Shown: positions 1,796 to 56,097 of the stretch, piece by piece | Layout of the letters: each line of letters begins with the position of its first letter | Position numbering within the stretch: position 1 is the first letter of the stretch | DNA from: Candidatus Levyibacteriota bacterium | GTDB taxonomy: Bacteria; Patescibacteriota; Microgenomatia; Levybacterales; UBA12049 | Length of the DNA: 64,000 nucleotides | Direction: 5' to 3' | NCBI GenBank assembly: GCA_016182235.1 | Contig: JACOXT010000003.1 | Span: 451,488 to 515,487 of the forward strand | The notes under the pieces: model-generated | Database searches by the model: none | What the model saw: only the letters and a program-made list of their open reading frames with translations | Told to the model about the DNA's origin: nothing | Program-made: the position numbers and the translations under genes

Positions 1796-2362
1796 ATGAA
1801 GATTGGCATAGATATATCTCAAATTGCATATGAAGGGACTGGAGTTGCGCGATACTTAAGGTCTCTGGTTGAAGAGCTCCTGAGAATTGATAAAAAGAAC
1901 GAGTATGTCCTTTTTTTCTCAAGCCTCAGAAGAAAAATTCCCTCCTTCGCCAAGGCTGCCTCCTTCGCCGAAGTGGCTACGAAGGCCGAGTCGGCGGGCA
2001 AGAGAAATTCCAAAATAAAGGCTTTTAGATTTCCCCCTTCTTTGTTAGATTTACTCTGGAATAGGCTGCATATTTTGCCGGTCGAGTGGCTAATTGGAGA
2101 TGTTGATATTTTTATTACTTCCGACTGGACGGAGCCTCCTGTACTTCGAGCAAAAAAGGCAACAATTCTATACGACCTTATTGTTTATAAATATCCTCAA
2201 GAAACAGATAAACATATTGTCGAGGTTCAAAAGCGAAAATTAGAATGGGCTAAAAAAGAATCAGATTTAATTTTTTGCATATCAGAGGCCACAAAGAAAG
2301 ATGCCATGGAAATCTTAGACGTTGAAGAGGAACGATTAAAGGTTATATTGCCGGGAGTGTGA
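1796..2362 (+). CDS. truncated GT4 glycosyltransferase, N-terminal Rossmann domain only (possible gene remnant)
   Basis: 188 aa. Starts MKIGIDISQ..GTGVARY like a GT4 N-domain and stops just after ...ILPGV, the position where the downstream GT4 has TYPGV. Lacks the C-terminal EX7E/nucleotide-sugar domain. Contains the GC-rich in-frame insertion at 1934-2011. Confidence 0.5.
   Translation: MKIGIDISQIAYEGTGVARYLRSLVEELLRIDKKNEYVLFFSSLRRKIPSFAKAASFAEVATKAESAGKRNSKIKAFRFPPSLLDLLWNRLHILPVEWLIGDVDIFITSDWTEPPVLRAKKATILYDLIVYKYPQETDKHIVEVQKRKLEWAKKESDLIFCISEATKKDAMEILDVEEERLKVILPGV
1934..2011. repeat. GC-rich ~60-bp in-frame insertion flanked by AAATTCC direct repeats inside the GT4 fragment
   Basis: agAAAAATTCC[ctccttcgccaaggctgcctccttcgccgaagtggctacgaaggccgagtcggcgggcaag]AGAAATTCCaaaat. 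The core contains palindromic CTTCGCCGAAG. Confidence 0.6.
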
Positions 2363-3564
2363 TTATGACTATTGGGATCAATGGATACGAAGCTGTAATG
2401 CCGAGGTTTGGATATGATTTTGAAACAAAACTGCCAAGAAGGGTCGGCAGCGGTGAATATTGTTTTGAACTCCTACTATATCTTAACAAAATTGATAAGA
2501 AAAACAAATATATAATATTTCTTCCCAAAACTCCAACAATGGATTTACCTAGGCAATCAGATAGCTGGCGATATAGGATTGTTGGGCCAAAGCGCTTTTG
2601 GACGATTTTTGGGTTATCAATGGAATTTTTGCTTAGGCGGTCTAAGGTAGACGTATTTTTCTCCCCAACTCATTATTTGCCTTTTTTTTTGCCAGTAAAA
2701 TCCGCTGTTTCTGTTTTAGATGTTTCCTTTATTCATTTTCCTAAGCTTTTTAAAAAGAAAGATCTGTATCAGCTTAAGAGTTGGACAGCTTATTCGGTAA
2801 GGAAAGCATCAAAAGTGTTAACGATTAGCCTGGCGTCAAAAGATGATATAATTAAGACATACAATGTTTCGAAGGAAAAGGTGATAGTTACATATCCCGG
2901 AGTAAAATCCGAAATTCAAATATCGAAATTCGAAACAAATGCAAAATTCAAAATGCAAAATTCAAAATTTCTTAAAGATAAGTACGGGGCTGAAGGGAAT
3001 TATATTTTGTTTGTGGGGACATTACAGCCCAGAAAAAATATAGTCCGTCTTATCGAGGCCTTTAGCCATATTTCTTCTTCTTTAATCATTAATCCTGCCT
3101 CGCCGGCAGGCAGGCCTTTATCGTTAATCATTGTGGGTAAAAAGGGTTGGTTATATGAGGAAATTTTGGAGACTCCCAAAAAGCTTAATATTGAGACGAA
3201 AGTAAAGTTTTTAGAAAATATTTCAGATGAAGATTTGCCTTATTTTTATAAAAACGCTTTATGTTTTGTTTTACCTAGCCTATATGAAGGGTTTGGCCTG
3301 CCAATTTTGGAAGCAATGAGATATGGGTGTCCGGTTATCACAAGTAATATCTCCTCGCTTCCCGAGGCAGGAGGAGACGCGGCTCTATACGTAGATCCTC
3401 TCAATGTAGACGATATTGCCAAAAAATTGGAATTAGTAATTAATAATGAAGATTTAAGGAAAAAACTTATAAAAAAAGGTTACGAACAAGTTAGGAAATT
3501 CAGTTGGGAGAAAACAGCAAGAGAAACATTAAGGGTATTGGAAGGTGTAGTAAATAATGAGTAG
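2359..3564 (+). CDS. GT4-family glycosyltransferase
   Basis: 401 aa with the C-terminal GT4 signature EGFGLPILEAMRYGCPVITS. Carries two in-frame mini-insertions (2905-2972 and 3082-3132). Confidence 0.85.
   Translation: MIMTIGINGYEAVMPRFGYDFETKLPRRVGSGEYCFELLLYLNKIDKKNKYIIFLPKTPTMDLPRQSDSWRYRIVGPKRFWTIFGLSMEFLLRRSKVDVFFSPTHYLPFFLPVKSAVSVLDVSFIHFPKLFKKKDLYQLKSWTAYSVRKASKVLTISLASKDDIIKTYNVSKEKVIVTYPGVKSEIQISKFETNAKFKMQNSKFLKDKYGAEGNYILFVGTLQPRKNIVRLIEAFSHISSSLIINPASPAGRPLSLIIVGKKGWLYEEILETPKKLNIETKVKFLENISDEDLPYFYKNALCFVLPSLYEGFGLPILEAMRYGCPVITSNISSLPEAGGDAALYVDPLNVDDIAKKLELVINNEDLRKKLIKKGYEQVRKFSWEKTARETLRVLEGVVNNE
2905..2972. repeat. AT-rich in-frame insertion with GAAATTC/AAAATTC tandem units in GT4
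   Basis: tccGAAATTCaaatatcGAAATTCgaaacaaatgcAAAATTCaaaatgcAAAATTCaaaatttc encodes SEIQISKFETNAKFKMQNSKF. Confidence 0.6.
3082..3132. repeat. GC-rich hairpin mini-insertion with perfect 9-bp direct repeat (TTAATCATT) inside GT4 CDS
   Basis: TTAATCATTaatCCTGCCtcgccGGCAGGcaggcctttatcgTTAATCATT. Repeat-to-repeat distance is 42 nt (14 codons), so it is in frame. Confidence 0.7.
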
Positions 3565-4127: not shown

Positions 4128-5018
4128 GTGATAGAACTCTCTATAATTATTCTTTCTTATAATACCAAAGATTTAACGCGTCGATGCATCCAATCAGTAA
4201 GAAAGCAATATAAAAAAGAACTGATAGACAAAAAATTGGAAATTATAGTTATTGACAATAATTCATCCGATGATTCTGCATCTTTATTGTCAGATCTTAA
4301 AAAAGAAATACTCGCCTCGCGGCGAAGCGGGTCAAATTTTACACTAATTCAAAATAGAGAAAATTTAGGATTTGCTAAAGGTTGCAATTTCGGCGCTAAA
4401 AACGCTAAAGGAAAATATCTTCTTTTTCTAAATTCTGATACTACAGTTCTAGATAGGGGATTTTTACGGATGACAGAATTTTTAGATAATCACAAAGAAG
4501 CTGGTATTTTGGGTGGAAGACTTCTGAATCCAAATGGTACTCCCCAACGATCGGGTGGAAAGTTTTATAACCTATGGTACCTTTTTTTAATGCTTTTAGG
4601 GTTGGAGGTGTTAGTAAGAAGATCACCTACTAAGATAGATAAGATTGATTGGGTAAGTGGGGCTTGCTTGATGATAGGAAAGAATCAATTCAATAATCTA
4701 TCTGGTTTTGATGAACATTTTTTCATGTACATAGAAGACATGGAATTATGCTATAGGATGAGAAAACTTGGTTTTTCAACTTATTTTTATCCTTTTGTTG
4801 GGATTGAGCATAAAACCCTAGGTAGCAGCAACAGATCATTTGCTATAATTAATATTTATAAGGGAATTCTCTATTTTTATTCAAAACACAAAAATCATCT
4901 AGAGTATTTAGTTGCCAAAACATTGCTTATCTCAAAAGCAGAAATTTTAATTTTGGTAGGATTTTTGACATTTAGCTCTGGGCTAAGGGATAGATACAGA
5001 AAGGCGGTAATGTTTTAA
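4128..5018 (+). CDS. GT2-family glycosyltransferase
   Basis: N-terminal IIILSYNTKD and VIDNNSSDDS with a DXD-like FLNSDT. Contains a GC-palindrome insertion at 4311-4332. Confidence 0.8.
   Translation: MIELSIIILSYNTKDLTRRCIQSVRKQYKKELIDKKLEIIVIDNNSSDDSASLLSDLKKEILASRRSGSNFTLIQNRENLGFAKGCNFGAKNAKGKYLLFLNSDTTVLDRGFLRMTEFLDNHKEAGILGGRLLNPNGTPQRSGGKFYNLWYLFLMLLGLEVLVRRSPTKIDKIDWVSGACLMIGKNQFNNLSGFDEHFFMYIEDMELCYRMRKLGFSTYFYPFVGIEHKTLGSSNRSFAIINIYKGILYFYSKHKNHLEYLVAKTLLISKAEILILVGFLTFSSGLRDRYRKAVMF
4311..4332. repeat. GC-rich palindromic core CTCGCCTCGCGGCGAAGCGGGT inside GT2 CDS
   Basis: Same core family as the copies at 29026-29047 and (reverse complement) 45518-45538. Confidence 0.6.
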
Positions 5019-8237: not shown

Positions 8238-9719
8238 ATGAGGAAGTTTGAGATTTTTGCGTTGGCAGTTATTCTTATTGGGGCGTTTACAGTTAGGTTA
8301 TATAGGTTCGACTGGCCGGTTGCGGATTGGCACAGTTGGCGTCAGACTGACACATCGGCAGTTTCCCGAAATTTTGTAAGAGAAGGTTTCGACATATTCC
8401 GTCCCAAATTTGATGATTTATCTTCCGGTGTTTCTTTAATCGATAACCCAGAAGGTTACAGGTTTGTTGAATTTCCTATCTATAATGTGTTTCAAGCCAT
8501 TCTTTATCAGCAAATCGGTAAATTTACACTTGAGGAATGGGGAAGAGTAGTAACTATCTTTTCTTCCCTAATTTCGATAGTTTTTCTTTACCTTCTAGTT
8601 GCAAAGTACACGAATTCTCGCACCGGACTTTTGGCTTCTTTTTTCTTTGCTCTCATTCCATATAATATTTTTTATGGTCGCACCATTCTTCCCGATCAAT
8701 CTATGGTTGCATCACTTCTTGCAGGAACATACTTTTTTTCAAATTGGATGGAAAATAAAGACTTCAAATTTTCGATTTTCAATCTTCAATTTTTTCTAGC
8801 TGTCTTACTTATGGCGATGGCTTTACTTTTGAAGCCTTACGCTTTGTTTTTTACTTTGCCTTTGGTTTATCTTGCATGGAGTCGTTTTGGCTTTGGCTTT
8901 TTAAAAAAATGGCAGCTTTGGGCTTATTTTATTCTGGCAATTTTGCCTTTGATCTTGTGGCATATATGGATGAGTCAAAGGGAGTTTATTCAAGGAATTC
9001 CGCGTAATGATTGGTTATTTAATGGTAACGGCATTAGATTTAAAGGAGCATTTTTTCATTGGCTTTTTGGAGACAGAATAGGTCGTCTTATCTTGGGATA
9101 CTGGGGATTGCCTTTTGTTGTTTTGGGAATCATAAGGAAAATCAATAGAAAAGAAAATTGGTTTTTTTATTTTTTTATAGTTTCCTCTCTTGCCTATATG
9201 ACAATTTTAGCAACAGGAAATATCCAGCACGATTATTATCAAATTCTTATTGTTCCAACCCTTTCAATTTTTCTTGCAAAGGGTGTAGACCTTATACTTA
9301 GCAGTAAAGAATTTTTTAACCGGTCAGTTTCTTATATAATAATTGCTGGTGGAATTATTTTTATGTTAGCCTTCGGTTGGTTTGGGGTCAGGGATTATTA
9401 CAGCATTCAGCACCCGAACCTTATAGCTGCGGGACTCGCAGTTGACGAGCTTACTCCGAAAGATGTAAAAATTATTGCGCCCTATGGCGGGGATACAACC
9501 TTGTTATACCATACCAATCGAAAAGGCTGGCCGGTTTTTGACAGATCTTTTAAGGATTTTAAGAAAGCAGGAGCATCTTATATTGCCTTTGCTGATCCAA
9601 CGCCAGAGGAACTAAATTTAGAAACGTTATTCGAGCCTGTAATTATCACCCCTCAATACGCAATATTTGATCTTACAAAACCCACTCTGCAAGGCTTAAG
9701 AGAACAGAAAAAAGATTAA
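8238..9719 (+). CDS. GT39/GT83-like (ArnT/PMT-type) membrane glycosyltransferase
   Basis: N-terminus RLYRFDWPVADWHSWRQTDTSAVSRNF is the typical PMT_2/ArnT-like signature. Has about 11 TM helices. Contains a heptamer tract at 8763-8795. Confidence 0.7.
   Translation: MRKFEIFALAVILIGAFTVRLYRFDWPVADWHSWRQTDTSAVSRNFVREGFDIFRPKFDDLSSGVSLIDNPEGYRFVEFPIYNVFQAILYQQIGKFTLEEWGRVVTIFSSLISIVFLYLLVAKYTNSRTGLLASFFFALIPYNIFYGRTILPDQSMVASLLAGTYFFSNWMENKDFKFSIFNLQFFLAVLLMAMALLLKPYALFFTLPLVYLAWSRFGFGFLKKWQLWAYFILAILPLILWHIWMSQREFIQGIPRNDWLFNGNGIRFKGAFFHWLFGDRIGRLILGYWGLPFVVLGIIRKINRKENWFFYFFIVSSLAYMTILATGNIQHDYYQILIVPTLSIFLAKGVDLILSSKEFFNRSVSYIIIAGGIIFMLAFGWFGVRDYYSIQHPNLIAAGLAVDELTPKDVKIIAPYGGDTTLLYHTNRKGWPVFDRSFKDFKKAGASYIAFADPTPEELNLETLFEPVIITPQYAIFDLTKPTLQGLREQKKD
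8763..8795. repeat. TTCAATT/TTCGATT heptamer tract inside GT39-like CDS (encodes FKFSIFNLQFF)
   Basis: ttcaaattttcgattttcaatcttcaatttttt. Related to the ileS AATTTTC tract. Confidence 0.6.
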
Positions 9720-9720
9720 G

Positions 9721-9772
9721 ATGACCCGTTCGGCTAACGCTCAGGGTCATAGTGAGTGAAATCGAATCTATG
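9721..9772 (+). promoter_or_regulatory. conserved hairpin-containing 5-prime leader element (copy 1) immediately upstream of the GT4 start codon
   Basis: ATGACCCgttcggctaacgctcaGGGTCATagtgagtgaaatcgaatctATG. Homologous to 22892-22940. Confidence 0.45.
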
Positions 9773-10987
9773 AATATTCTTCTTATCTCGTCATTTCTTC
9801 CTTATCCTCTGTTTACCGGAGGACATATTCGCTTATTTAATTTAATAAAGCTCTTATCAAAAAAACACTCAATAACACTGGTATGTGAAAAAAGAGAATC
9901 GCAAAAGCAAAATGATGTTAGAGAGTTAGAGAAATATTGCAAGATTGTTAGAGTGATTCCTCGAAGAAAGCAATGGTCAATGGGTAATATTTTAAAAACA
10001 GGTTTTTCAATTTCCCCATTTTTAGTAACTGGACACACGAGTAGACTTATGAAAGAGGAAATAAAGAGTCTAATTAGCCAAACTCAATTTGATTTGATTC
10101 ATATAGAAACATCTTATGTGATGCAAAATCTGCGCTCCGGTAAGCTAGGTATTCCTATTGTTTTAGTTGAGCATAATATAGAGTATCTGGTCTATAAACG
10201 ATTTGTTGACAATATGCCTTTATATCTTCGGCCGATTTTGTATTTAGATATATTGAAGCTAAAATACTGGGAGGAAAGGATGTGGAGAAAAGCAACTAAA
10301 TTAATAGCTGTATCAGAGTCTGAAAAGAAAATAATGAGTTTAGAAAAAAAGGACGTGGTAGTGGTGCCAAATGGAGTAGATGTTAATAAATATCAAATAT
10401 CATCCATTCGACAAGCTCAGGATAAAAATAGAAAAGAAGAGAAAAGAGTTCTTTTTATTGGAGACTTTAGATGGATTCAAAACAGAGATGCTCTTACACA
10501 AATTATTTTAGACATTTGGCCAAAACTTAGAGCAGAAGTTATACCTTCATTAACAGAGGGATTAAAACTTTGGGTTGTTGGGAGAAAAATACCAGACTCA
10601 ATAAAGAAATTAACAAGAGACAAAAGTATTTTTTTTGATGAAAATGCGCCCGCCGATACACAGCTTATTTATAAAAATGCTTATCTTTTACTTGCTCCAA
10701 TTAACGTTGGGGGAGGAACAAGTTTTAAGATCTTAGAAGCTATGGCTTCAGGCGTTCCTGTAATAACAACGCGTTTGGGAAACGCTATCGGGGCACAGGA
10801 TAACTTAGAGATTCTTGTTGCTCATTCCCCAAAAGACTTTGTGCAGAGAATTATTGAACTATTCGAGAATAAAGCTCTTTATAGTAAAATTTCTACAAAT
10901 GCGCGAAAACTCGTGGAAGAAAAGTTTAATTGGGATAAGATTGCAAACGATTTAAATTCTGTCTACGAATCTGTAGTATATGCTTGA
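9770..10987 (+). CDS. GT4-family glycosyltransferase
   Basis: N-terminal ILLISSFLPYPLFTGGHIRLFNL and C-terminal FKILEAMASGVPVITT. The ORF track uses GTG 9752, but ATG 9770 is the more likely start. Confidence 0.8.
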   Translation: MNILLISSFLPYPLFTGGHIRLFNLIKLLSKKHSITLVCEKRESQKQNDVRELEKYCKIVRVIPRRKQWSMGNILKTGFSISPFLVTGHTSRLMKEEIKSLISQTQFDLIHIETSYVMQNLRSGKLGIPIVLVEHNIEYLVYKRFVDNMPLYLRPILYLDILKLKYWEERMWRKATKLIAVSESEKKIMSLEKKDVVVVPNGVDVNKYQISSIRQAQDKNRKEEKRVLFIGDFRWIQNRDALTQIILDIWPKLRAEVIPSLTEGLKLWVVGRKIPDSIKKLTRDKSIFFDENAPADTQLIYKNAYLLLAPINVGGGTSFKILEAMASGVPVITTRLGNAIGAQDNLEILVAHSPKDFVQRIIELFENKALYSKISTNARKLVEEKFNWDKIANDLNSVYESVVYA

Positions 10988-11879
10988 TTTATCTATTATT
11001 ATCGTTAATTACAACACCAAAGAATTTTTAGAAGGATGTGTTGATTCGCTTCTGAATTCAATTTCAAAGAAAATTAATTATGAAATTGTTGTGGTTGATA
11101 ATGCATCCATTGATGACTCGCCATCGGCAATCTCTCGCCTTCGTCAAGACTTCGGGGGGAAAGTAAATATAAAAACAATTTTAAATAAGGAAAATTTGGG
11201 GTTTTCTAGAGCGAATAATCAAGGAATAAAAATTTCTCAAAACAGCCGATACATATTGTTTTTAAATCCTGATACTCTTGTCAAAAATGACACGGTCGAA
11301 AAAATGATCGAATTTATGGATAAGCATAAAGATGCGGGGGCTGCAACATGTAAAGTCGTTATGCAAAATGGGCAAATAGATGATGCGTCTCATCGCGGAT
11401 TTCCAACGCCTTGGAACGCTTTTTGTCATTTTGTAGGTTTTGAAAAAATATTTCCAAAGTCAAGATTATTTAGCGGATACACTTTAGGGTGGAAAGAATT
11501 TTCAAAAGTACATGAAATAGATGTTTTGGCCGGAGCTTTTATGCTAGTCAGAAGAAAGGCGGGAGAGGATGTTAGCTGGTGGGATGAAGATTATTTTTTC
11601 TATGGAGAAGACATAGAATTTTGCTATCAATTAAAACAAAAAGGATGGAAGATTTATTATGTGCCACAGGCTTCAATAATGCATTTTAAAGGCGTTTCGG
11701 GAGGAATAAAATCAGTTTCCAAAGATATTACAACAGCAAATCCAGAAACAAAAAGAATAGCAACAAACGCACGATTTAACGCTATGCGTATTTTTTATAA
11801 CAAGCACTACAAAAAAAAGTATCCACAGGTTGTTAACTGGTTAGTACATCTTGGAATTTCAATAAAAGAACATTTATGA
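10980..11879 (+). CDS. GT2-family glycosyltransferase
   Basis: LSIIIVNYNTKEF, VVDNASIDDS and a DXD-like FLNPDT. Confidence 0.8.
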   Translation: MLDLSIIIVNYNTKEFLEGCVDSLLNSISKKINYEIVVVDNASIDDSPSAISRLRQDFGGKVNIKTILNKENLGFSRANNQGIKISQNSRYILFLNPDTLVKNDTVEKMIEFMDKHKDAGAATCKVVMQNGQIDDASHRGFPTPWNAFCHFVGFEKIFPKSRLFSGYTLGWKEFSKVHEIDVLAGAFMLVRRKAGEDVSWWDEDYFFYGEDIEFCYQLKQKGWKIYYVPQASIMHFKGVSGGIKSVSKDITTANPETKRIATNARFNAMRIFYNKHYKKKYPQVVNWLVHLGISIKEHL

Positions 11880-13033
11880 AAATTGGTATTGACGCAAGAC
11901 TTTGGAACGAAGGAGGGGTAGGAAGATACATAAGAAATCTAATTAAGCAAATTCAGCCTTTAGATAAAAGTAATCTTTATACTTTGTTTGTTTTGTCTAA
12001 AGACTATGAAAGTATTAAGTACGAAGTATCAAGTATTAAGGAGGAAAATTGGGAACTTATAAAGACAAATATTCGGTGGCATTCGATTGAGGAGCAGTTA
12101 AAGTTTGCTAACATTTTAAACAAAGAAGAATTAGATTTGGTGCATTTTCCCTATATTTCGGTGCCGTTGAATTATCAAAAGCCATTTATCATTACAATAC
12201 ACGATTTAATTCCATATCATTATCCTTCTTCAAATGCTTCCGCTCTCCCTTTCCCTATTTACTTCTTAAAATTATTGGCATATAAATTTGTGGTGAGAGC
12301 CGCAGCAAGAAAAGCGCAAAAAATTATCGCGCCCTCAAATTTTACAAAAAAGGAAATTGTAGAACATCTAAAAATTGATCCAAGAAAAGTAATAGTAACT
12401 TACGAAGGAGTAAATAGTAAAATTACAAATTCAAAATCTCAAATTCCAAAAAAATCCCAAAATACTAAATACAAAATACTAAATACAAAATACTTTTTAT
12501 ATGTAGGAAACGCGTTTCCGCATAAGAATCTTGAGGTATTGATAGAAGCTTTCAATCTTTTCCGTCAAGAGCATCCTGGTATTTTTCTTGTCTTTGTCGG
12601 CAAGGAGGATTTCTTCTACAGTCGATTAAAAAATGAGGTTTACAAGCGTAAAATTTCAGACGTAGTTTTTTTACATAATATAATTGATGGGCAATTAGTA
12701 AGTTTGTACAGAAGCGCAATTGCATTTGTTTCACCTTCTCTTATGGAAGGATTTGGTCTGCCGGTTCTTGAGGCAATGGTAAATAGATGTTTGGTTTTGG
12801 CATCGGATATTCCAACACATCGAGAAATTTGTGGCAAGGTTGCCTTATACTTTGATCCTAATAATGTTGGGGATCTAACTCAAAAACTAGAATCCATTCA
12901 CTCTAATGATATGTATTATTATAGTGAAAAAAAAAGGGGGTTTGATCGAGCGAAAGTGTTCTCTTGGGAAAAGATGGCAAGAGAAACTTTAAAAATATAT
13001 GAAAGTTGCGTTGGTTTACGACAGAGTGAATAA
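11876..13033 (+). CDS. GT4-family glycosyltransferase
   Basis: C-terminal EGFGLPVLEAM. Contains the AT-rich in-frame insertion at 12418-12493. Confidence 0.8.
   Translation: MKIGIDARLWNEGGVGRYIRNLIKQIQPLDKSNLYTLFVLSKDYESIKYEVSSIKEENWELIKTNIRWHSIEEQLKFANILNKEELDLVHFPYISVPLNYQKPFIITIHDLIPYHYPSSNASALPFPIYFLKLLAYKFVVRAAARKAQKIIAPSNFTKKEIVEHLKIDPRKVIVTYEGVNSKITNSKSQIPKKSQNTKYKILNTKYFLYVGNAFPHKNLEVLIEAFNLFRQEHPGIFLVFVGKEDFFYSRLKNEVYKRKISDVVFLHNIIDGQLVSLYRSAIAFVSPSLMEGFGLPVLEAMVNRCLVLASDIPTHREICGKVALYFDPNNVGDLTQKLESIHSNDMYYYSEKKRGFDRAKVFSWEKMARETLKIYESCVGLRQSE
12418..12493. repeat. AT-rich ~70-bp in-frame insertion (A/C/T heptamer-like tracts) in GT4, homologous to the murE copy at 29515-29585
   Basis: aaaattacaaattcaaaatctcaaattccaaaaaaatcccaaaat... 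encodes KITNSKSQIPKKSQNTKYKILNTKY. The murE copy is aaaattccaaactcaaaatctcaaattacaaataaatccaaaatt. Confidence 0.65.
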
Positions 13034-27910: not shown

Positions 27911-28486
27911 ATGGCTGGGAGGACGCATGATTTGGGTGCTTTTACTGCGCTAACTTATACGGTGGCTACGCAGCCCCTACACGAGATGACGCTTGCGACA
28001 GCGATCGTTGCCTTTTTGGCTAACATGGTTGGAGGGTTGGCGCCTGATATTGACCAGCCAACCGGAAATTTGTGGAACAGAGTTCGGGGAGGAAGGTTGG
28101 TTAGCAGACTTGTTACTCCTCTTCTTGGAGGACATCGTTTTATCTCACATTCGTTATTAGGCATATTACTATTTGGGTTCGTTGTGAGTAAACTTCTAGA
28201 TACTGTGAGTTCAGTTCTACTCGTTGATATGAATATTGTTTGGTGGGCTTTTATGATAGGATTTGTGTCTCACCTAATGCTAGATACACTTAGTCGAGAA
28301 GGAGTTCCATGGCTATTTCCGATTCCAATTCGTATCGGAATTCCTCCATTTCGGTTTCTCCGTATAAAAACCGGTGGTATAGTCGAAAAATCATTTGCCT
28401 TTCCCATGCTTTTGATTGCAAATATTTATATGTATTATATCCACTACCCCAAATTTATGGACTTCTTACGGCACTACATAAAGTAG
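27911..28486 (+). CDS. membrane-bound metal-dependent hydrolase, DUF457/YdjM-like
   Basis: 191 aa, GC-rich compared with its neighbours. Has His-rich TM helices. The family assignment is from memory. Confidence 0.5.
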   Translation: MAGRTHDLGAFTALTYTVATQPLHEMTLATAIVAFLANMVGGLAPDIDQPTGNLWNRVRGGRLVSRLVTPLLGGHRFISHSLLGILLFGFVVSKLLDTVSSVLLVDMNIVWWAFMIGFVSHLMLDTLSREGVPWLFPIPIRIGIPPFRFLRIKTGGIVEKSFAFPMLLIANIYMYYIHYPKFMDFLRHYIK

Positions 28487-28518
28487 AGAAGAGGTTAAGA
28501 AAAGGGTATAATGGGGAC

Positions 28519-29757
28519 ATGCTACAGAGAATTAAGAATATTTATCACCTTGGAAATGGCATTCTGGGTAATTTGCGGTTTGGGTTTCCATCACATAAGC
28601 TTACTGTAATAGGCGTTACCGGAACTGATGGTAAAACAACAACTACAAGTCTAATATACCATGTCCTTTCTACATCTGGACGAAATGCATCGATGATAAG
28701 CTCAGTTGGGGCAGTAATAGGAGGAAGAGAGTATGATGTGGGATTTCATGTTACAACTCCTTCTTCCTGGGCGCTTCAGAAGTTTATTAAAGAGGCAGAA
28801 AAGGGCTTTCTGGTTCTTGAGACGACGTCTCATGCCTTGGATCAATTTAGAGTTTGGGGAATAAAATTTGACATTGGAGTTTTAACCAATATCACCCATG
28901 AACACCTAGATTACCACAAGACTTACCATAAATACGTTGAGGCAAAAGCAAAGCTTCTTGAAATGAGCCGAGTAGCGATTGTGAATAGAGACGACAAATC
29001 ATACCCGTTAATAAATTCGAAATTCGCTCGCCTCGCTGCGAAGCGGGAAATTCGAAATTCGAAATTAATTACCTATGGGATGAAAGATAATGCGGATTTA
29101 AATCCAAAAAAATTTCCATTTAAAACAAATATGATTGGAGAGTTCAATATTTACAACAGTCTTGCCGCAATAGCGGTATGTAGAGCTCTTGGTATTCCAG
29201 ATGAAGATATTAGAACGGGTTTAAAGTCATTTAAGCCTCCGATTGGCAGAGAAGAAGTAGTTTATAAGAAAGATTTTACCGTTATGATTGATTTTGCACA
29301 TACACCTAACGCCTTTGAGGAAATTCTGAGTTCAATTAAACCGAGTATAAAAGGCAGACTTATTCACGTATTTGGGTCGGCGGGACTTAGAGACAATACC
29401 AAAAGACCAATTATGGGGAGAGTCTCATCAAAATATGCGGATATTATTGTTTTGACCTCTGAAGATCCAAGATCGGAATCGGTTGAGAAGATTTCAGACG
29501 AGATAGAATCAGGAATAAAAATTCCAAACTCAAAATCTCAAATTACAAATAAATCCAAAATTCAAATATATAAAATTCCAAATCGACAAGAAGCAATTCA
29601 ATTTGCTATTAAGATTGCTAGAAAAGGAGATTTGGTCTTGACAACGGGGAAATCGCACGAAAAATCAATGAATTATGGACATGGAGAAGTTCCGTGGGAC
29701 GAGTACAGCGCTGTACGAAAAGCATTAAAAGGTTTGGGATTAAAGATTAAGGATTAA
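28519..29757 (+). CDS. murE: UDP-N-acetylmuramoyl-tripeptide ligase (MurE-type Mur ligase)
   Basis: P-loop VIGVTGTDGKTTT and a C-terminus GDLVLTTGKSHEKSMNYG resembling MurE GKGHE. Start set at ATG 28519 (MLQRIKN). Carries two in-frame mini-insertions (29014-29066 and 29515-29585). Confidence 0.75.
   Translation: MLQRIKNIYHLGNGILGNLRFGFPSHKLTVIGVTGTDGKTTTTSLIYHVLSTSGRNASMISSVGAVIGGREYDVGFHVTTPSSWALQKFIKEAEKGFLVLETTSHALDQFRVWGIKFDIGVLTNITHEHLDYHKTYHKYVEAKAKLLEMSRVAIVNRDDKSYPLINSKFARLAAKREIRNSKLITYGMKDNADLNPKKFPFKTNMIGEFNIYNSLAAIAVCRALGIPDEDIRTGLKSFKPPIGREEVVYKKDFTVMIDFAHTPNAFEEILSSIKPSIKGRLIHVFGSAGLRDNTKRPIMGRVSSKYADIIVLTSEDPRSESVEKISDEIESGIKIPNSKSQITNKSKIQIYKIPNRQEAIQFAIKIARKGDLVLTTGKSHEKSMNYGHGEVPWDEYSAVRKALKGLGLKIKD
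29014..29066. repeat. mini-insertion in murE: GAAATTC heptamer duplications flanking GC palindrome GCTCGCCTCGCTGCGAAGCGGG
   Basis: aaattcGAAATTC[gctcgcctcgctgcgaagcggg]GAAATTCGAAATTCGAAATT. In frame. Confidence 0.7.
29515..29585. repeat. AT-rich in-frame insertion in murE, homologous (~85% over ~50 nt, same reading frame) to 12418-12493
   Basis: Encodes KIPNSKSQITNKSKIQIYKIPNRQ. The tail tccaaaattcaaatata matches tccgaaattcaaatatc of the copy at 2905-2972. Confidence 0.65.
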
Positions 29758-31196
29758 TGATAAAAAAAATAAGATATATTCACTTCGCAGGGGTAAAAGG
29801 TGTTGGCATGGCTCCTCTTGCGATTATTGCCAAGGAAGCCGGAATAAATGTAACTGGCTCAGACATTGAAGACGAATTCATCACTGATGAGCTTCTTGAA
29901 AAAGCAAATATTAAGCCTTTTGTTGGTTTTTCAAAAAAAAATATCAAAGACCCAGATCTTGTTATTACAACAGGCGCACATGGCGGATTTGATAATTTAG
30001 AAGTTAAAGAGGCAAAGAGGAAAAAAATCAGAGTTATGACACAAGGCGAGGCAGTGGGTCTTTTTATGGATGGAACGATCTTTGGGAGAAGATTTACTGG
30101 AATTTCAGTAACTGGAACACATGGTAAAACGACAACAACAGCTATGGTAGCAACGATTCTTAAAGAAGCAAATCTTGACCCCTCATATGTTGTTGGAACA
30201 GGTTTTGTGCCGTCTCTTGGATCATCAGGGCACTTAGGGCAAGGAAAGTATTTTGTTTCAGAAGCCGATGAATATATAACAGAACCAAAATATGATAGAA
30301 AAATAAAATTCATGTGGCAAAACCCCAAAATTGCGGTTATTACAAACATAGAGTTTGATCATCCGGATGCTTATAAAACAATTGATGACGTAAAAGAAGC
30401 GTTCAAAAAATTCCCTAGCAAACTTCCAAAAGATGGCATATTAATTACCTGTGGCGATGATCATGAAGTAAGGAAGCTTTTTAAAGCTTATAAAGGGAAC
30501 AGAATTACGTATGGATTTTCAAAAGATAACGACTTTACAGTCAGCGAGGTCCGACCTTGTAATGACGGTAAGAAATATAAAGGCATACTAGAATTTAGGG
30601 TTATGAGAAAAAATCAAGATTTTGGAAAGTTCTATCTTAATGTTTTTGGCATACATAATGCTCTTAATGCCACTGCGGCATTTGTTGTGGGGCATAATCT
30701 TGGTTTGAATACACACAGTATTAAAAAAGGTTTGCTTGCATTTCAAGGCACAAAAAGAAGATCGGAATTTATAGGTGCACTAAAATCCGGTGCTAGGGTT
30801 TTCGACGATTACGCGCATCATCCAACAGAAATAAAAAACACACTTAGGGGATTTAAACAGAATTTTTCGAATATAAAATTAGTATGCATATTCCAGCCAC
30901 ATACCTACTCTCGAACAAAATCATTGTTCGAACAATTTTCTAAATCGTTTACGGATGCTGATATACTCATACTAACAAATATTTTTGCGTCCCTTCGTGA
31001 GAAAAAAGATCCTGAAATGTCATCTGAGCTTTTAGCAAATGAGGCTAGAAAATATAACAAGGAAGTATATTTCAAGCCTGCGCTTTCAGATGTGGTAAAA
31101 TATGTCAATTCTAAAAAATACGGGAAAGACACGATTATCATTACAATGGGAGCAGGAGACGTATATAAAATAAGTGAAGGGTTAAGATTACATTAA
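29757..31196 (+). CDS. murC: UDP-N-acetylmuramate--L-alanine ligase
   Basis: IHFAGVKGVGMAPLA and GTHGKTTTTAM with the Mur ligase C-terminal domain. Confidence 0.85.
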   Translation: MIKKIRYIHFAGVKGVGMAPLAIIAKEAGINVTGSDIEDEFITDELLEKANIKPFVGFSKKNIKDPDLVITTGAHGGFDNLEVKEAKRKKIRVMTQGEAVGLFMDGTIFGRRFTGISVTGTHGKTTTTAMVATILKEANLDPSYVVGTGFVPSLGSSGHLGQGKYFVSEADEYITEPKYDRKIKFMWQNPKIAVITNIEFDHPDAYKTIDDVKEAFKKFPSKLPKDGILITCGDDHEVRKLFKAYKGNRITYGFSKDNDFTVSEVRPCNDGKKYKGILEFRVMRKNQDFGKFYLNVFGIHNALNATAAFVVGHNLGLNTHSIKKGLLAFQGTKRRSEFIGALKSGARVFDDYAHHPTEIKNTLRGFKQNFSNIKLVCIFQPHTYSRTKSLFEQFSKSFTDADILILTNIFASLREKKDPEMSSELLANEARKYNKEVYFKPALSDVVKYVNSKKYGKDTIIITMGAGDVYKISEGLRLH

Positions 31197-31262
31197 TGTC
31201 ATCCCGAATTTATTTCGGGATCTAATTAGATGCTGAAGCAAGTTCAGCATGACAACTAATAA
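31197..31262 (+). terminator. two adjacent 8-bp-stem hairpins after murC (putative terminator or processing site)
   Basis: aTCCCGAAtttattTTCGGGAt followed by ATGCTGAAgcaagTTCAGCAT, nested within outer GTCAT/ATGAC complementarity. No clear U-tract. Confidence 0.35.
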
Positions 31263-45006: not shown

Positions 45007-46143
45007 ATGAAAGTTGTAGTAATAGGAGGCCATTTATCTCCAGCGTTATCCGTAATCGAAGCGCTGCCAAAAGAGGTAAGTATATTATTTGTTGGAAGAA
45101 AATATTCTTTTGAGGGAGATAAGTCAAAATCTTTGGAATACGAGACCATTAATTCTCTTAAGTTTCCTTTTGCTGAGATTACTACAGCAAGGTGGCAAAG
45201 AAAGTTTACAAGACACACTATTAATTCGCTCTTTAAATTTCCTATTGGAGTTATTCAGTCGTTATTTATTTTATTAAGATTTAAGCCAGATGTTGTTGTT
45301 GGATTTGGAGGGTATGTGTCTCTGCCAGTTGCTATATCTTCTTTTATCCTAAGAGTTCCCGTTGTAATTCACGAGCAGACTTTGGAGGCAGGTTTTTCAA
45401 ATAGAATAATTTCGGTATGGGCTTCTAAGATATGTATATCATGGGAGTCATCACGCTCATTTTTTCCAAAAGAAAAAACGGTATTGACAGGAAACCCGAT
45501 ACGGAAGTTCGAAGTTCCCGCTTCGCAGAGAGGCGAGCGAAGTATGAAGTATGAAGTTGATAAGAAGGTTCCTACAATTTATATAACCGGTGGAAGTTCG
45601 GGATCGCATTTTATCAACAAATTAGTCGAAGGTTGTATTGGGGAACTGCTGAGAAAATTCAACATAATCCATCAGATTGGAGAGTCAAAATTTGGCGATT
45701 TTGAACGCTTAGTAAAGCTTCGTGAGACATTTTCTTTTGATCAACGCAAAAGATATATTTTAAAAAAATTTGTTAAACCGTCCCAAGTTGCCTCAATTTT
45801 AAAATATTGCGATTTAGCTATATCACGTTCGGGTATAAATACAATAACAGAACTTATTTATTTTGAAAAACCAGCTATTCTAATACCCCTCCCATTTTCT
45901 CAAAATAACGAACAATTGAAAAACGCAAGATTTTTGGAGACGTTCAAATTAGGAAAAGTATTGTCTCAAAACGAAGCTGACTCAAGAAGCTTATCTCAAA
46001 TGGTAGACTTAATATTTGATAATATAAAAGAGCATAAGTTAAATGAGAGCGAATCAGCGAAGAGGCAAATAGAAAATGCGGCTCAAAATATAGTTAAGAT
46101 TGTTGAATATGTCGGTGAAACAAAGAAAGTCCCGAAATTATAG
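45007..46143 (+). CDS. murG: undecaprenyldiphospho-muramoylpentapeptide beta-N-acetylglucosaminyltransferase
   Basis: N-terminal VIGGHLSPALSV and a GT28 C-terminal domain. Carries the GC-palindrome insertion at 45504-45558. Confidence 0.8.
   Translation: MKVVVIGGHLSPALSVIEALPKEVSILFVGRKYSFEGDKSKSLEYETINSLKFPFAEITTARWQRKFTRHTINSLFKFPIGVIQSLFILLRFKPDVVVGFGGYVSLPVAISSFILRVPVVIHEQTLEAGFSNRIISVWASKICISWESSRSFFPKEKTVLTGNPIRKFEVPASQRGERSMKYEVDKKVPTIYITGGSSGSHFINKLVEGCIGELLRKFNIIHQIGESKFGDFERLVKLRETFSFDQRKRYILKKFVKPSQVASILKYCDLAISRSGINTITELIYFEKPAILIPLPFSQNNEQLKNARFLETFKLGKVLSQNEADSRSLSQMVDLIFDNIKEHKLNESESAKRQIENAAQNIVKIVEYVGETKKVPKL
45504..45558. repeat. mini-insertion in murG: GAAGTTC/GAAGTAT heptamer duplications flanking GC palindrome CCGCTTCGCAGAGAGGCGAGC (reverse orientation of the murE core)
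   Basis: GAAGTTCGAAGTTC[ccgcttcgcagagaggcgagc]GAAGTATGAAGTATGAAGTT. In frame. Confidence 0.7.
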
Positions 46144-53169: not shown

Positions 53170-56097
53170 ATGTTCGAAGTTGTAGATCCAAAATTAAATT
53201 TCCCCAAGCTCGAAGAGGACCTTCTTAAAATGTGGTACAAAGAGGGAATTGTGAAAAAATATCTTCAAAAAAATAATTCTTCCAAGAAGAAATTTTCTTT
53301 TCTTGATGGGCCAATAACTGCTAACAATCCCATGGGTGTTCACCATGCCTGGGGAAGAACTTACAAAGATCTCTGGCAAAGATTTTGGAACATGAGAGGC
53401 TATAAGCAAAGATTCCAGAATGGATTTGATGAACAAGGGCTTTGGGTCGAGGTAGAAGTTGAAAAAGAATTGGGTTTGAAGAATAAGAAAGATATTGAAA
53501 ATTTAATTCCGGGCAATAAGTTTGCAAGTCTTGAGAAATTTATAAATCTTTGTAAAGAAAGAGTAAGAAAATTTTCTAAGATTCAAACCGAACAAAGCAA
53601 GAGGCTTGGATATTTTATGGACTGGGACAACTCTTATCATACCTCTTCGGATCGAAATAACTACACAATCTGGAATTTCTTAAAAATCGTCAATGAAAAA
53701 GGCTGGCTTTACAAGGGACGAGACAGTGTGCCGTGGTGCCCAAGATGCGGGACTGCAATTTCTCAACATGAAATTTTGACTGAGGAATACAAAGAACTTA
53801 CTCATAAAACAGTCGTTTTTAAACTTACAATTAAAGGGAGAAACAAAGAATATTTACTTGCTTGGACTACAACGCCCTGGACAATTCCGGGAAATGTCGC
53901 GCTTGCAGTTGACAATAATCTATCGTATTGGAAGATGGAAAACGCCAAAGGCGAGAAAATAATTATTGTTAATCCGACAGCAAATGGTGATCTTAATAAG
54001 GAAGCTATGCTTGTTAATAGGCTAGGATTAATAGAAGGTTATGTAAAAGTAGAGGAACTTAAGGGAAAAGATCTTGTAGGACTTGGATACGAGGCGCCTT
54101 ATGATAGTTTGCCTTCTGTTAAAAAAACCCTTGGGAATTATACGCATCGGGTAGTTGCAACTGATCCCCAAGTATTACCGATTAATCCAGCTGAGGGTAC
54201 TGGAATTGTCCATATTGCTCCTGGCGCGGGCGCGGAAGATTTTAAGCTTAGCAAGAAAGAAAAAATACCTGCAATTGAGGAAATTGACGAAAGTGGTGTA
54301 TTTATAGACGGATTTGATTTTATGTCTGGAAAGCATGTTAAAAAAGCAATGCCTCAGATTTTGGAGGACCTTGAAAAACGTAACTTTGCTTTTAAAATTT
54401 TTGACTATATGCATCGCTATCCTACATGCTGGAGGTGTAAAACTGAGTTAGTCTGGAGAGTAGTTGATGAATGGTATATAGCAATGGATAAAGCATTAAA
54501 GTCAAAAGTCAAAAGTCAAAAGTCAAAAGTTGAAGAAAATAAAACATATAGAGAACAGATGATTGAGGTAGCTAAGAAGATTAACTGGATACCTAAATGG
54601 GGATTAGATAGGGAACTTGATTGGCTTTCCAACATGCACGATTGGCTTATAAGCAAAAAGCGTTTTTGGGGACTGGCATTACCAATTTGGGAATGCAAAG
54701 AGTGCGGAAGTTTTGAGGTGATTGGCGGACGGGAGGAGCTTAAAGTTCGAGCATTTAGCGGTTGGAAGGAGTTCGATGGAAATAGCCCCCATAGACCATG
54801 GATTGATCAAATAAAAATAAAATGCAAAAATTGTAGATCAATAATGTCACGAATACCTGATGTTGGAAACCCATGGCTTGATGCAGGTATTGTTCCTTTC
54901 TCAACATTGCCCGCTGGTTGGTTTCCAGCAGATTTTATTACTGAAAGTTTTCCAGGGCAATTTAAAAATTGGTTTTACTCTCTTATTGCAATGGCAACAG
55001 CTATTAAAAATGAACCTCCTTTTAAAACAGTTTTGGGGTTTGCTTCAGTTCGAGACGAAAAAGGAGAGGAAATGCATAAATCAAAAGGAAATGCTATTGA
55101 ATTCAATGAAGCCGCAGGCAAGATTGGGGGAGACGTCATGAGGTGGCTTTACACGACTCAAAAGCCTGAACTCAATCTTAATTTTGGTTATGGACCCGCA
55201 ACAGACGTAAAAAGAAGATTCTATTTAATACTTTGGAACAGTTATAAATTTTTTGTTGACTACGCAAAAGCTTCTTCATGGGAATGTGGAAGAAATGTTA
55301 AAGATTTAACAATACTAGATAAATGGATTCTGGCAAGATTAACAGAAGTAGTTTTCTTGGTAAATGAATCTTTAGAAAGATTCGATGCAAGTCGCGCCTC
55401 TTTCGCAATAGAGGAATTTGTAGTGAAAGATTTTTCTACATGGTACATAAGAAGATCTCGAGACAGGGTTTCGCCAATTTCAGACGCAAATGACAGAAAT
55501 ACTTGTTTTTCAGTTATGTACGGAGTCTTGGTTACGCTTTCCAAATTACTTGCTCCTTTTACGCCATTTATTGCTGAGGAAATATTTAGAAATTTGGCAA
55601 ATGAAGAATCAGTACATTTACAAAGTTATCCGAAGGGCGACAAGTCGCTATTGAATAGAAATCTTATTGAGGATATGAAGAAAGTAAGGGAAGTTGTCGA
55701 AGCTGGACACGCAAAACGAAAAGAAATTGGGATAAGAGTAAGACAACCGCTACCCAAATTTTCAATTTTCAATTTTCAATTTTCAATTGAAGAGAAGCTA
55801 ATAGATCTTATTAGGGATGAGTTAAATGTTAAAAATGTTATTTTCAAGATGAGAAAAGGACCGTTTTCTGTGGAGTTCGATACGGAGATTACAAACGATC
55901 TTAAAAATGAAGGTGAGGCAAGAGAAATAGTTAGAAGAATTCAGCAGGAACGAAAAATTATAGGTACGACATTGAATGAGAGGGTAAATGTCACTTTGGA
56001 GAGTTGGCCGGCTTCATATAGCAATTACATTAAAAGAAATGCGTTAGTTGGAAGTCTCAAAAAAGGAGACGAATTTTCGGTCGCAAGGCAGAAATGA
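53170..56097 (+). CDS. ileS: isoleucyl-tRNA synthetase, type 2 (eukaryote/archaeal-like)
   Basis: FLDGPITANNPMGVHHAWGRTYKDL..GFDEQGLWVE matches the type-2 IleRS N-terminus. KMSKS-like HKSKGN present. Carries in-frame repeat tracts at 54498-54531 and 55757-55789. Confidence 0.85.
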   Translation: MFEVVDPKLNFPKLEEDLLKMWYKEGIVKKYLQKNNSSKKKFSFLDGPITANNPMGVHHAWGRTYKDLWQRFWNMRGYKQRFQNGFDEQGLWVEVEVEKELGLKNKKDIENLIPGNKFASLEKFINLCKERVRKFSKIQTEQSKRLGYFMDWDNSYHTSSDRNNYTIWNFLKIVNEKGWLYKGRDSVPWCPRCGTAISQHEILTEEYKELTHKTVVFKLTIKGRNKEYLLAWTTTPWTIPGNVALAVDNNLSYWKMENAKGEKIIIVNPTANGDLNKEAMLVNRLGLIEGYVKVEELKGKDLVGLGYEAPYDSLPSVKKTLGNYTHRVVATDPQVLPINPAEGTGIVHIAPGAGAEDFKLSKKEKIPAIEEIDESGVFIDGFDFMSGKHVKKAMPQILEDLEKRNFAFKIFDYMHRYPTCWRCKTELVWRVVDEWYIAMDKALKSKVKSQKSKVEENKTYREQMIEVAKKINWIPKWGLDRELDWLSNMHDWLISKKRFWGLALPIWECKECGSFEVIGGREELKVRAFSGWKEFDGNSPHRPWIDQIKIKCKNCRSIMSRIPDVGNPWLDAGIVPFSTLPAGWFPADFITESFPGQFKNWFYSLIAMATAIKNEPPFKTVLGFASVRDEKGEEMHKSKGNAIEFNEAAGKIGGDVMRWLYTTQKPELNLNFGYGPATDVKRRFYLILWNSYKFFVDYAKASSWECGRNVKDLTILDKWILARLTEVVFLVNESLERFDASRASFAIEEFVVKDFSTWYIRRSRDRVSPISDANDRNTCFSVMYGVLVTLSKLLAPFTPFIAEEIFRNLANEESVHLQSYPKGDKSLLNRNLIEDMKKVREVVEAGHAKRKEIGIRVRQPLPKFSIFNFQFSIEEKLIDLIRDELNVKNVIFKMRKGPFSVEFDTEITNDLKNEGEAREIVRRIQQERKIIGTTLNERVNVTLESWPASYSNYIKRNALVGSLKKGDEFSVARQK
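54498..54531. repeat. (AAAGTC)x5 hexamer tandem repeat inside ileS (encodes KSKVKSQKSKV)
   Basis: Seen directly: aaagtcaaaagtcaaaagtcaaaagtcaaaagt. Confidence 0.8.
55757..55789. repeat. (AATTTTC)x4.7 heptamer tandem repeat inside ileS (encodes KFSIFNFQFSI)
   Basis: Seen directly: aattttcaattttcaattttcaattttcaattg. Confidence 0.8.

Follow-up and report, generated by a model that had tools for sequence, protein, structure and literature searches.

A G-free, heptamer-built string shared in frame by a glycosyltransferase gene and murE of a Candidatus Levyibacteriota genome, and its probable relation to a dispersed repeat

Heptameric repeats are over-represented in bacteria, and polymerase slippage has been proposed for them, according to work cited in PMC4692102 and PMC4679880. 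Known heptamers include the short tandemly repeated repetitive sequences (STRR) of heterocystous cyanobacteria, GGGAATC in Xanthomonas, GGGGA(T/C)T in Nostoc, and TAACTGA in Beggiatoaceae, Cyanobacteria and Bacteroidetes (PMC4679880, PMC4692102). The TAACTGA repeats follow a stop-codon logic, have spread across phyla without a known vehicle, and were proposed to bind S1 or cold shock proteins (Csp) (PMC4679880, PMC4692102). Small palindromic repeats can also be fused in frame to genes, as described for the Rickettsia palindromic elements (RPEs; Ogata 2000) and for several MITEs (miniature transposable elements with inverted repeats) among those treated in the review by Delihas (2011, PMC3184786). 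Our literature search found no account of heptamer or in-frame repeats in the candidate phyla radiation (CPR) or Patescibacteria. Here we analyze a 64,000-nt stretch of a Candidatus Levyibacteriota genome (GCA_016182235.1, contig JACOXT010000003.1, positions 451,488 to 515,487; hereafter the window), in which one G-free, A-rich string is found in the same reading frame in a family 4 glycosyltransferase (GT4) gene and in murE. The MurE encoded here is identical to a protein of a Candidatus Levybacteria metagenome-assembled genome, and Levybacteria are members of the CPR.

The initial annotation of the window reported AT-rich segments shared by these two genes and read in one frame. This was borne out: the sequence contains both segments at the positions first given for them (12421-12470 and 29518-29565), and both lie in long open reading frames (ORFs). 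An ungapped repeat search paired 12419-12484 with 29518-29583 at 80% identity over 66 nt (family D1). When every diagonal was scored, the best 40-nt window (12418-12457 against 29517-29556) matched at 35/40 positions and all other diagonals reached at most 26/40. Because one diagonal lies far above the rest, the likeness is specific and goes beyond a common periodicity; compared with themselves at shifts of 7 or 14, the two segments score 25–30/40. We also searched both strands of a clade set made up of the window and the murE neighbourhoods from 66 genomes (1.2 Mb rich in heptamer arrays; best murE identity in the set 68%), where the next-best match to either 40-mer was 30–31/40. The GT4 and murE segments are copies of one specific sequence. 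An exact 14-mer search in the window, with 6 matches at two or fewer mismatches against 4 expected, is uninformative alone.

Copy 1 (12419..12494, + strand) is G-free and A-rich with a degenerate 7/14-nt periodicity. It encodes KITNSKSQIPKKSQNTKYKILNTKY and is read as KITNSKSQIPKKSQ in ORF 11876..13033 (Pfam Glyco_transf_4 and Glycos_transf_1), where it forms the interdomain linker of the GT-B fold. Copy 2 (29518..29583, + strand) encodes KIPNSKSQITNKSKIQIYKIPN in a loop of the MurE C-terminal domain and is read as KIPNSKSQITNKSK in ORF 28309..29757 (Mur_ligase_M/C), in the same frame as the GT4 copy. The mechanical murE ORF begins at 28309, 210 nt upstream of the annotated start of the 412-aa protein (28519), and overlaps the preceding YdjM-like ORF (27911..28486); the N-terminal extension at 28309-28518 is probably not real. 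A third, shorter relative had been placed at 2905-2972. An array does exist there (AAAATTC-type heptamers, 2904..2969, + strand, encoding KSEIQISKFETNAKFKMQNSKF), in the same interdomain linker of a paralogous GT4 (ORF 2359..3564), and it is co-framed in the register originally described (S-E/K-I-Q-I). Its kinship with the other two did not hold up, since the ungapped search (2903-2968) gives only 68% identity to copy 1 and its best diagonal of 30/40 does not stand out from its other diagonals at 29/40. It is a generic heptamer array of the same repeat class and no specific copy of the focal element.

The focal string consists of degenerate 7-base units (AAATTAC AAATTC AAAATCTC AAATTCC AAATAAATCC and so on). 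Tandem Repeats Finder (TRF) detected period 7 or 14 at 12420-12450, 12458-12494 and 2904-2969, and periods 17 and 32 at 29519-29583; the focal arrays are degenerate, with 70–85% matches and core units of 6–10 bases. There is no G in 77 nt of the GT4 copy or 67 nt of the murE copy, while the host genes contain ~20% G. Across the clade set, non-redundant TRF arrays were dominated by period 7 (67 arrays), period 14 (36) and period 21 (10), against 0, 4 and 11 arrays of periods 6, 8 and 9, respectively. Period-7 density was 6.95 per 100 kb in Levybacteria-like loci (MurE identity to the query of 53% or more) and 0.36 in outgroups, a ~20-fold difference. The window alone has 8 period-7 rows, and 30 Markov-simulated windows together gave 1. 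Arrays within genes are mostly A-rich on the sense strand (40 of 52 genic period-7 arrays); 29 of the 52 are open in all three sense frames, and 29 have an opposite strand closed in all three. Since 21 bases are three heptamers and also seven codons, an array of at least this length is read in all three unit phases. At gene ends the pattern differs, with stops in all three frames in nine of 11 overlapping arrays, e.g., (AAGAATT)n and (AAAGACT)n at murE/murF and murF/mraY junctions.

In several respects these arrays resemble described heptameric simple sequence repeats (SSRs): they are short tandem arrays of 7-base units in excess over other unit lengths, with inverted pairs able to form stem-loops. 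As with TAACTGA-type heptamers, their distribution across phyla is patchy, the stop-bearing strand sets their orientation in ORFs, and stop-bearing arrays occur at gene ends. Known heptameric SSRs are overwhelmingly intergenic, whereas 82 of 113 Levybacteria arrays lie inside ORFs, many of them essential genes; ORFs make up ~95% of the DNA, hence gene ends and spacers are enriched for arrays. The units here also differ in being G-free and A-rich. Unlike homogeneous heptameric arrays, the focal copy is irregular and degenerate, with an order conserved across species and genes.

Both copies occupy permissive sites. AlphaFold 2 models are confident overall (mean predicted local distance difference test score, pLDDT, of 87 for the GT4 and 84 for MurE). 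In the GT4 model, pLDDT drops below 50 only at residues 184-197 and in the C-terminal tail (382-385); in the model of the 412-aa MurE, residues 336-346 are one of three short segments below 50. Neither focal element has predicted secondary structure, and the encoded K/N/S/Q/I-rich peptide is predicted to be disordered. We considered and rejected a coiled-coil reading of the 7-aa periodicity because the hydrophobic spacing misfits a heptad and the models give coil.

Most of the 53 GT4 orthologues from Levybacteria have the linker DDKITNSKSQIPNKSQNTKYKILNTKY; the spacing from TYEGV to FLYVGN is fixed at 38 aa in ~30 of them, and some species have GC-rich mini-hairpin peptides inserted into the linker. 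Nucleotide identity of the GT4 element is 77–87% in four orthologues. The murE version, KIPNSKSQITNKSKIQIYKIP, is common to a subclade (P0002, P0007, P0018, P0033), and its DNA is in register over 72 nt in L161-L163; most MurE orthologues have other content or a short loop at this site. On the evidence of these aligned sequences, both focal copies predate the divergence of the sampled species and have been passed on vertically. Core copies are 76–95% alike whatever the gene or genome, except for the diverged L160, and clustering does not discriminate among them; in this comparison matrix the L162 and L163 rows were out of register, as the anchor was missing from them. Among 61 aligned Levybacteria MurE proteins, most ~390–400 aa long, length varies chiefly at a small number of hot spots. 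The focal copy lies in the loop from ESGI to IPDR, whose length ranges from ~8 to ~60 aa. In other species this loop is filled with translations of GAAATTC (NSKFEIR), AAAGTCA (KSKVKSQ) or AATTTTC (NFQFSIF) or with GC-rich hairpin peptides, and in L027, L002 and L041 the arrays grow straight from the native codons GAATCAGGAAT.

Conservation of the element extends to its nucleotides. In the GT4 comparison (window and four orthologue DNAs, all ten pairs), third codon positions are 68–88% identical inside the element and 45–52% outside; the corresponding values for murE are 63–95% and 45–51%. Identical amino acids share their codon in 75% of cases inside the element and in 50% outside. Lysine is always AAA and glutamine always CAA inside the element, which contains 0–2 G. 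Peptide identity among GT4 orthologues is 64–84% inside and 56–67% outside. These comparisons suggest that the nucleotides of the element may be kept beyond the needs of the peptide. The additional conservation points to either an added constraint on DNA or RNA or homogenization by concerted evolution, and nothing of this kind is reported for heptameric SSRs in PMC4679880 or PMC4692102.

The string also occurs well outside the clade. We scanned one metagenome collection with the pattern AAAYTCAAAATCTCAAATTNCAAA, which has two free positions, and found 89 contigs of 33–62% GC carrying the core 24-mer (AAATTCAAAATCTCAAATTCCAAA); the two free positions were nearly always T and C among the matches. 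An ORF test on these contigs placed 79 of 90 sites outside genes. The ~11 genic sites use all three sense frames at 7:3:1 (NSKSQI 7, IQNLKFQ 3, KFKISNSK 1), with clear in-frame copies in TsaD, UvrC, SecA (beside a GC hairpin), UDP-sugar dehydrogenase and TrpC. The TrpC host (L115) belongs to the Opitutaceae (Verrucomicrobia) and has 62% GC. The corresponding loop is short in most orthologues of this TrpC, and a few carry other heptamer-coded inserts, e.g., GTRDSGLGTRDLGLGT. Thus, in-frame heptamer arrays in housekeeping enzymes reach beyond the CPR. Among these Opitutaceae orthologues (P0242-P0258) the loop inserts are of other unit types, namely GTRDSGLGTRDLGLGT, MKNEKWKMENGQ and TSDKWQV.

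Outside genes the string is often one half of a larger structure. A complementary T-rich arm lies at most 170 nt downstream of 30 of the 62 distinct non-genic copies, and never upstream, forming an AT-rich hairpin of ~120–130 nt in which the string is the 5' arm. The focal copies inside genes are single A-rich arms with no complementary arm nearby. Rfam recognized only tRNAs in 12 element-carrying loci, full hairpins included, and scans of viral contigs gave zero matches for the motif and for both unit-permuted controls. On two contigs of ~60% GC (L114:2734 and L132:1183) the ~32-nt gap from a stop codon to the following ATG is taken up entirely by the G-free motif, and a Shine–Dalgarno sequence is not visible. 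This arrangement hints that some intergenic copies may have a leader or translation-initiation role.

The shared reading frame has a simple explanation. In the absence of G, TAA is the only possible stop codon, and no antisense frame is open in either focal copy. The sense strand has one or two open frames, and pure arrays have all three. The initial annotation expected stops in most frames. This is true of the antisense strand and of the full 77-nt GT4 element, where two sense frames are closed and only the used frame is open, but it does not extend to the GT4 core or the murE copy, which each have one sense frame closed and two open. In composition-matched shuffles the used frame was open 11–33% of the time, so a stop-free state in one frame is unremarkable by itself. 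With the antisense strand closed and few sense frames open, copies that persist in essential genes are sense-oriented and in an open frame, which explains the co-framing. The shared frame is survivorship after stop-codon filtering, and no further cause is needed.

A mobile or duplicative element constrained to be translatable had initially been suggested, with copies expected to be genic and co-framed. That expectation failed on both counts in the metagenomes, where most sites are non-genic and the genic ones are spread over three frames, and a frame constraint is not supported. What survives is an element that is dispersed, duplicative and tolerated when translated, as the five proteins above illustrate, and the comparison with insert-free orthologues revealed both filled and empty sites among MurE and TrpC. 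The same distribution might have suggested a generic microsatellite; we rejected this because the irregular unit order is kept across species, genes and phyla and because synonymous sites are unusually conserved.

We consider it fairly probable that each focal segment, at its permissive loop site, is an in-gene copy of a single arm of a heptamer-built repeat that is dispersed, G-free and A-rich. The string would have been copied into the GT4 linker and the MurE loop from a pre-existing repeat, by transposition, template switching or ectopic conversion, and would not have arisen twice by local slippage. Insertions would then have been filtered, such that those in the sense orientation, with a length divisible by three and an open frame, could survive in essential genes and be inherited vertically as disordered hydrophilic spacers. 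Related arrays may later have been remodelled by slippage, with heptamer units gained and lost, and by GC-rich mini-hairpins that inserted and nested within them. The element is most likely a tolerated, possibly co-opted, flexible spacer.

Several observations weigh against this origin or against a special constraint on the string. The full AT-rich hairpin of the focal family was not found in the 64-kb window. With borders judged by eye, we found no terminal inverted repeats or target-site duplications at the in-gene copies, and no transposase was seen, although no dedicated search for one was made. Beyond the 24-mer, metagenome copies retain a column consensus of 40–70% beside the motif and then only compositional similarity. 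No second copy was present in 501 kb of the same metagenome contigs outside the matches, and the element is not a high-copy MITE on the sampled contigs. Moderate flank likeness together with the lack of a second copy means that a favoured combination of very common heptamer units could explain part of the cross-phylum sharing. Finally, the synonymous-site result draws on only 19–25 codons in five (GT4) or four (murE) related sequences, and the AAA/AAT/CAA codon bias of an AT-rich genome explains part of it.

In its genomic behaviour the element also resembles the RPEs, which are likewise short repeats dispersed between genes and within ORFs, in frame, at exposed or permissive positions of essential proteins that remain intact, with filled and empty sites among orthologues. 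RPEs are palindromes of 105–146 bp, found only in Rickettsia and inserted whole, whereas the genes studied here contain one hairpin arm of ~45–75 nt. The element is further distinguished from RPEs by being heptamer-built and present across phyla, with no inverted termini or target duplications seen. Relative to RPEs and MITEs together, it is multi-copy at unrelated loci and in frame with empty orthologues, and the inserted unit is not palindromic. PARCEL repeats (PMC2996958) are a looser parallel, similar in that dyad-symmetric repeat DNA is translated and has spread horizontally among unrelated microbes. They encode tandem 25-residue amphipathic domains in proteins of unknown function that are often membrane-targeted (PMC2996958), in contrast to the single hydrophilic, disordered stretch in housekeeping enzymes, and the mostly intergenic copies elsewhere, described here.

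The strongest alternative to a copied repeat arm, though we regard it as unlikely, is that the two segments are independent microsatellites, with slippage favouring 7-base units at local seeds and drawing on a small clade vocabulary of A-rich heptamers. The strong period-7 excess, the murE-loop arrays clearly grown from native GAATCAGGAAT codons, the existence of perfect arrays of 4–5 units, the moderate conservation of metagenome flanks, and the published heptamer excess and polymerase-slippage explanation (Mrazek 2007, cited by PMC4692102 and PMC4679880) are all in line with it. Independent slippage does not readily account for an in-register match of 35/40, against at most 26/40 on other diagonals, through irregular units of 8, 6, 8, 7 and 10 bases, when nothing exceeds 31/40 in 1.2 Mb of heptamer-rich relatives. 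It also fits poorly with the retention of the same irregular string in orthologues, with its presence as an AT-rich block in a TrpC of 62% GC and its absence from most orthologues of that gene, and with free scan positions that are almost always T and C.

Somewhat less likely still is the proposal that the G-free string is itself a conserved cis-acting nucleic-acid signal. It might serve as a landing array for S1 or Csp proteins with oligonucleotide-binding (OB) folds, one protein per heptamer, or as a Rho- or RNase-related signal, acting both in hairpins and in genes; it would have spread horizontally across phyla (CPR, Verrucomicrobia and others) under purifying selection on its nucleotides. 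If this were true, a regulatory element would be embedded in the coding sequence of essential genes.

Selection on the encoded peptide seems improbable. NSKSQIPNKSQ would then be a binding or targeting tag that moved between proteins, in keeping with the higher GT4 peptide identity inside the element (64–84%) than outside (56–67%), the 38-aa TYEGV-FLYVGN spacing in ~30 of 53 orthologues, and the predominance of the NSKSQI frame among genic copies (7 of 11). Yet 79 of 90 sites are non-genic and the remaining genic copies read IQNLKFQ or KFKISNSK. Conservation reaches synonymous positions and includes the avoidance of G, the region is predicted to be disordered without secondary structure, and species swap in unrelated heptamer or hairpin peptides at the same sites.

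A phase-variation switch is very doubtful. The arrays share with contingency repeats (tetra- to heptanucleotide, in Haemophilus and Neisseria) an intragenic unit of a length not divisible by three, whose addition or removal would shift the frame and toggle the gene, and one gene of the window has two perfect arrays (54498-54530 and 55757-55788). Contingency repeats, which are perfect tracts in dispensable genes (usually for surface proteins) with unit changes from strain to strain, differ from the arrays described here, which are imperfect, conserved across species and without evidence of on/off switching. The focal arrays match at only 70–85%, their kind is hosted by essential housekeeping genes (murE, murG, class I tRNA synthetase, FtsW/RodA), unit order is stable across species, and an independent assembly of the region is identical. 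Least credible of all is an assembly or annotation artefact in which low-complexity sequence was mis-joined into genes: AT-rich low-complexity repeats are hard to assemble and all data are metagenome-assembled, but a Logan assembly contig (L067) equals the window over 8,666 bases with no difference, orthologous copies occur in metagenome-assembled genomes and contigs of many independent studies, and frames run through every copy into conserved downstream domains.

Distinctive of this case are the apparent intragenic predominance of heptamer arrays in essential CPR genes, the use of a single arm, an irregular order conserved across species, genes and phyla, and the synonymous-site signal. In the small, tightly packed genomes of the CPR, short repeats colonize loops of essential enzymes (MurE, MurG, tRNA synthetase, FtsW/RodA, glycosyltransferases) and are long inherited. 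They make protein lengths vary and supply new disordered linkers in a clade usually framed by gene loss, and they extend heptameric repeats, a poorly understood class, to the CPR and to gene interiors. A survival rule applies within genes, where the stop-bearing strand decides which copies persist. The conserved synonymous sites and the recurrence of one irregular string across phyla point either to a function at the nucleic-acid level or to an undescribed copying mechanism. Such inserts are also a potential pitfall for pipelines that align CPR proteins, assign their orthology or predict their structure.

Genes of the window with internal arrays comprise three GT4 paralogues (in the interdomain linker), a PMT_2 membrane glycosyltransferase, MurE, MurG, a class I tRNA synthetase, FtsW/RodA and RsmH. 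The focal GT4 gene has a second array, of AAGTATT type, at 12010..12040 (+ strand; ESIKYEVSSIK). The third GT4 (ORF 60899..61957) carries a CAAATAT-type array in its interdomain linker at 61393..61424 (+ strand; DKYQISNIKYQ). Heptamer-coded peptides follow the G-V/I motif in this GT-B linker in several paralogues (ORFs 2359..3564, 9752..10987, 11876..13033 and 60899..61957; also L157, L158 and L160). For each paralogue, an array is present in some species and absent in others, making the linker a recurrent hot spot. L158 lacks an array at the linker of the 2359 paralogue, where L157 has an array and a GC hairpin, and L157 lacks one at the linker of the 9752 paralogue.

The class I aminoacyl-tRNA synthetase (ORF 53170..56097) contains two perfect arrays on the + strand: (AAAGTCA) x4.7 at 54498..54530 (KSKVKSQKSKV) and (AATTTTC) x4.6 at 55757..55788 (KFSIFNFQFSI), the latter T-rich on the sense strand. 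Both units also fill the murE loop of other species. A single-unit change in either array would shift the frame of this essential gene, and the perfection of both suggests recent expansion. T-rich sense-strand arrays, coding for F/I/L-rich peptides, otherwise occur in membrane proteins, while the A-rich ones occur in soluble loops; the soluble tRNA synthetase, with its array at 55757-55788, is the exception. The PMT_2 array (8767..8793, + strand; KFSIFNLQF) is of AATTTTC type, and that of FtsW/RodA (56370..56400, + strand; FEILGFRFQF) is 71–76% complementary to the focal A-rich copies (I16, I17). At 29738..29765 (+ strand), a GATTAAA-type array with stops encodes the MurE C-terminal tail, the murE stop codon and the murF start. 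Arrays with stops in all frames (GATTAAA, AAGAATT and AAAGACT types) are positioned exactly at murE/murF and murF/mraY junctions in many species; stop-bearing junction arrays in relatives include L002:4972-5000, L004:11191-11223 and 12561-12596, L009:12586-12614, and L059:12679-12721.

A GC-rich mini-hairpin of the form CTCGCCTCGC[G/T]GCGAAGCGGG, often flanked by GAAATTC, is likewise dispersed and lies in frame in murE, murG and ORF 4128..5018, with peptides such as ARLAAKRE, PASQRGER and LASRRSGS. The murE copy with GAAATTC flanks (29016..29066, + strand; SKFARLAAKREIRNSK) is open in all six frames. The murG copy (45504..45557, − strand; KFEVPASQRGERSMKYEV) is inverted and 87% complementary (I1), and the third copy of the window (4309..4331, + strand; EILASRRSGSN) matches at 20/23 bases. 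Relatives carry this mini-hairpin at the same MurE hot spots, and it was located at L008:8679, L015:6956, L023:1967 and 3780, and L059:6988. A different palindrome, a 58-nt double hairpin (TGTCATCCCGAATTTATTTCGGGATC...GATGCTGAAGCAAGTTCAGCATGACA), occupies 31197-31254 in the spacer that separates murF from the gene after it. When translated (CHPEFISGS...MLKQVQHD), it matches MurE inserts read in frame near position ~94 in P0009, P0015, P0033, P0055 and P0086, so that this palindrome is intergenic in the window and genic in those other Levybacteria.

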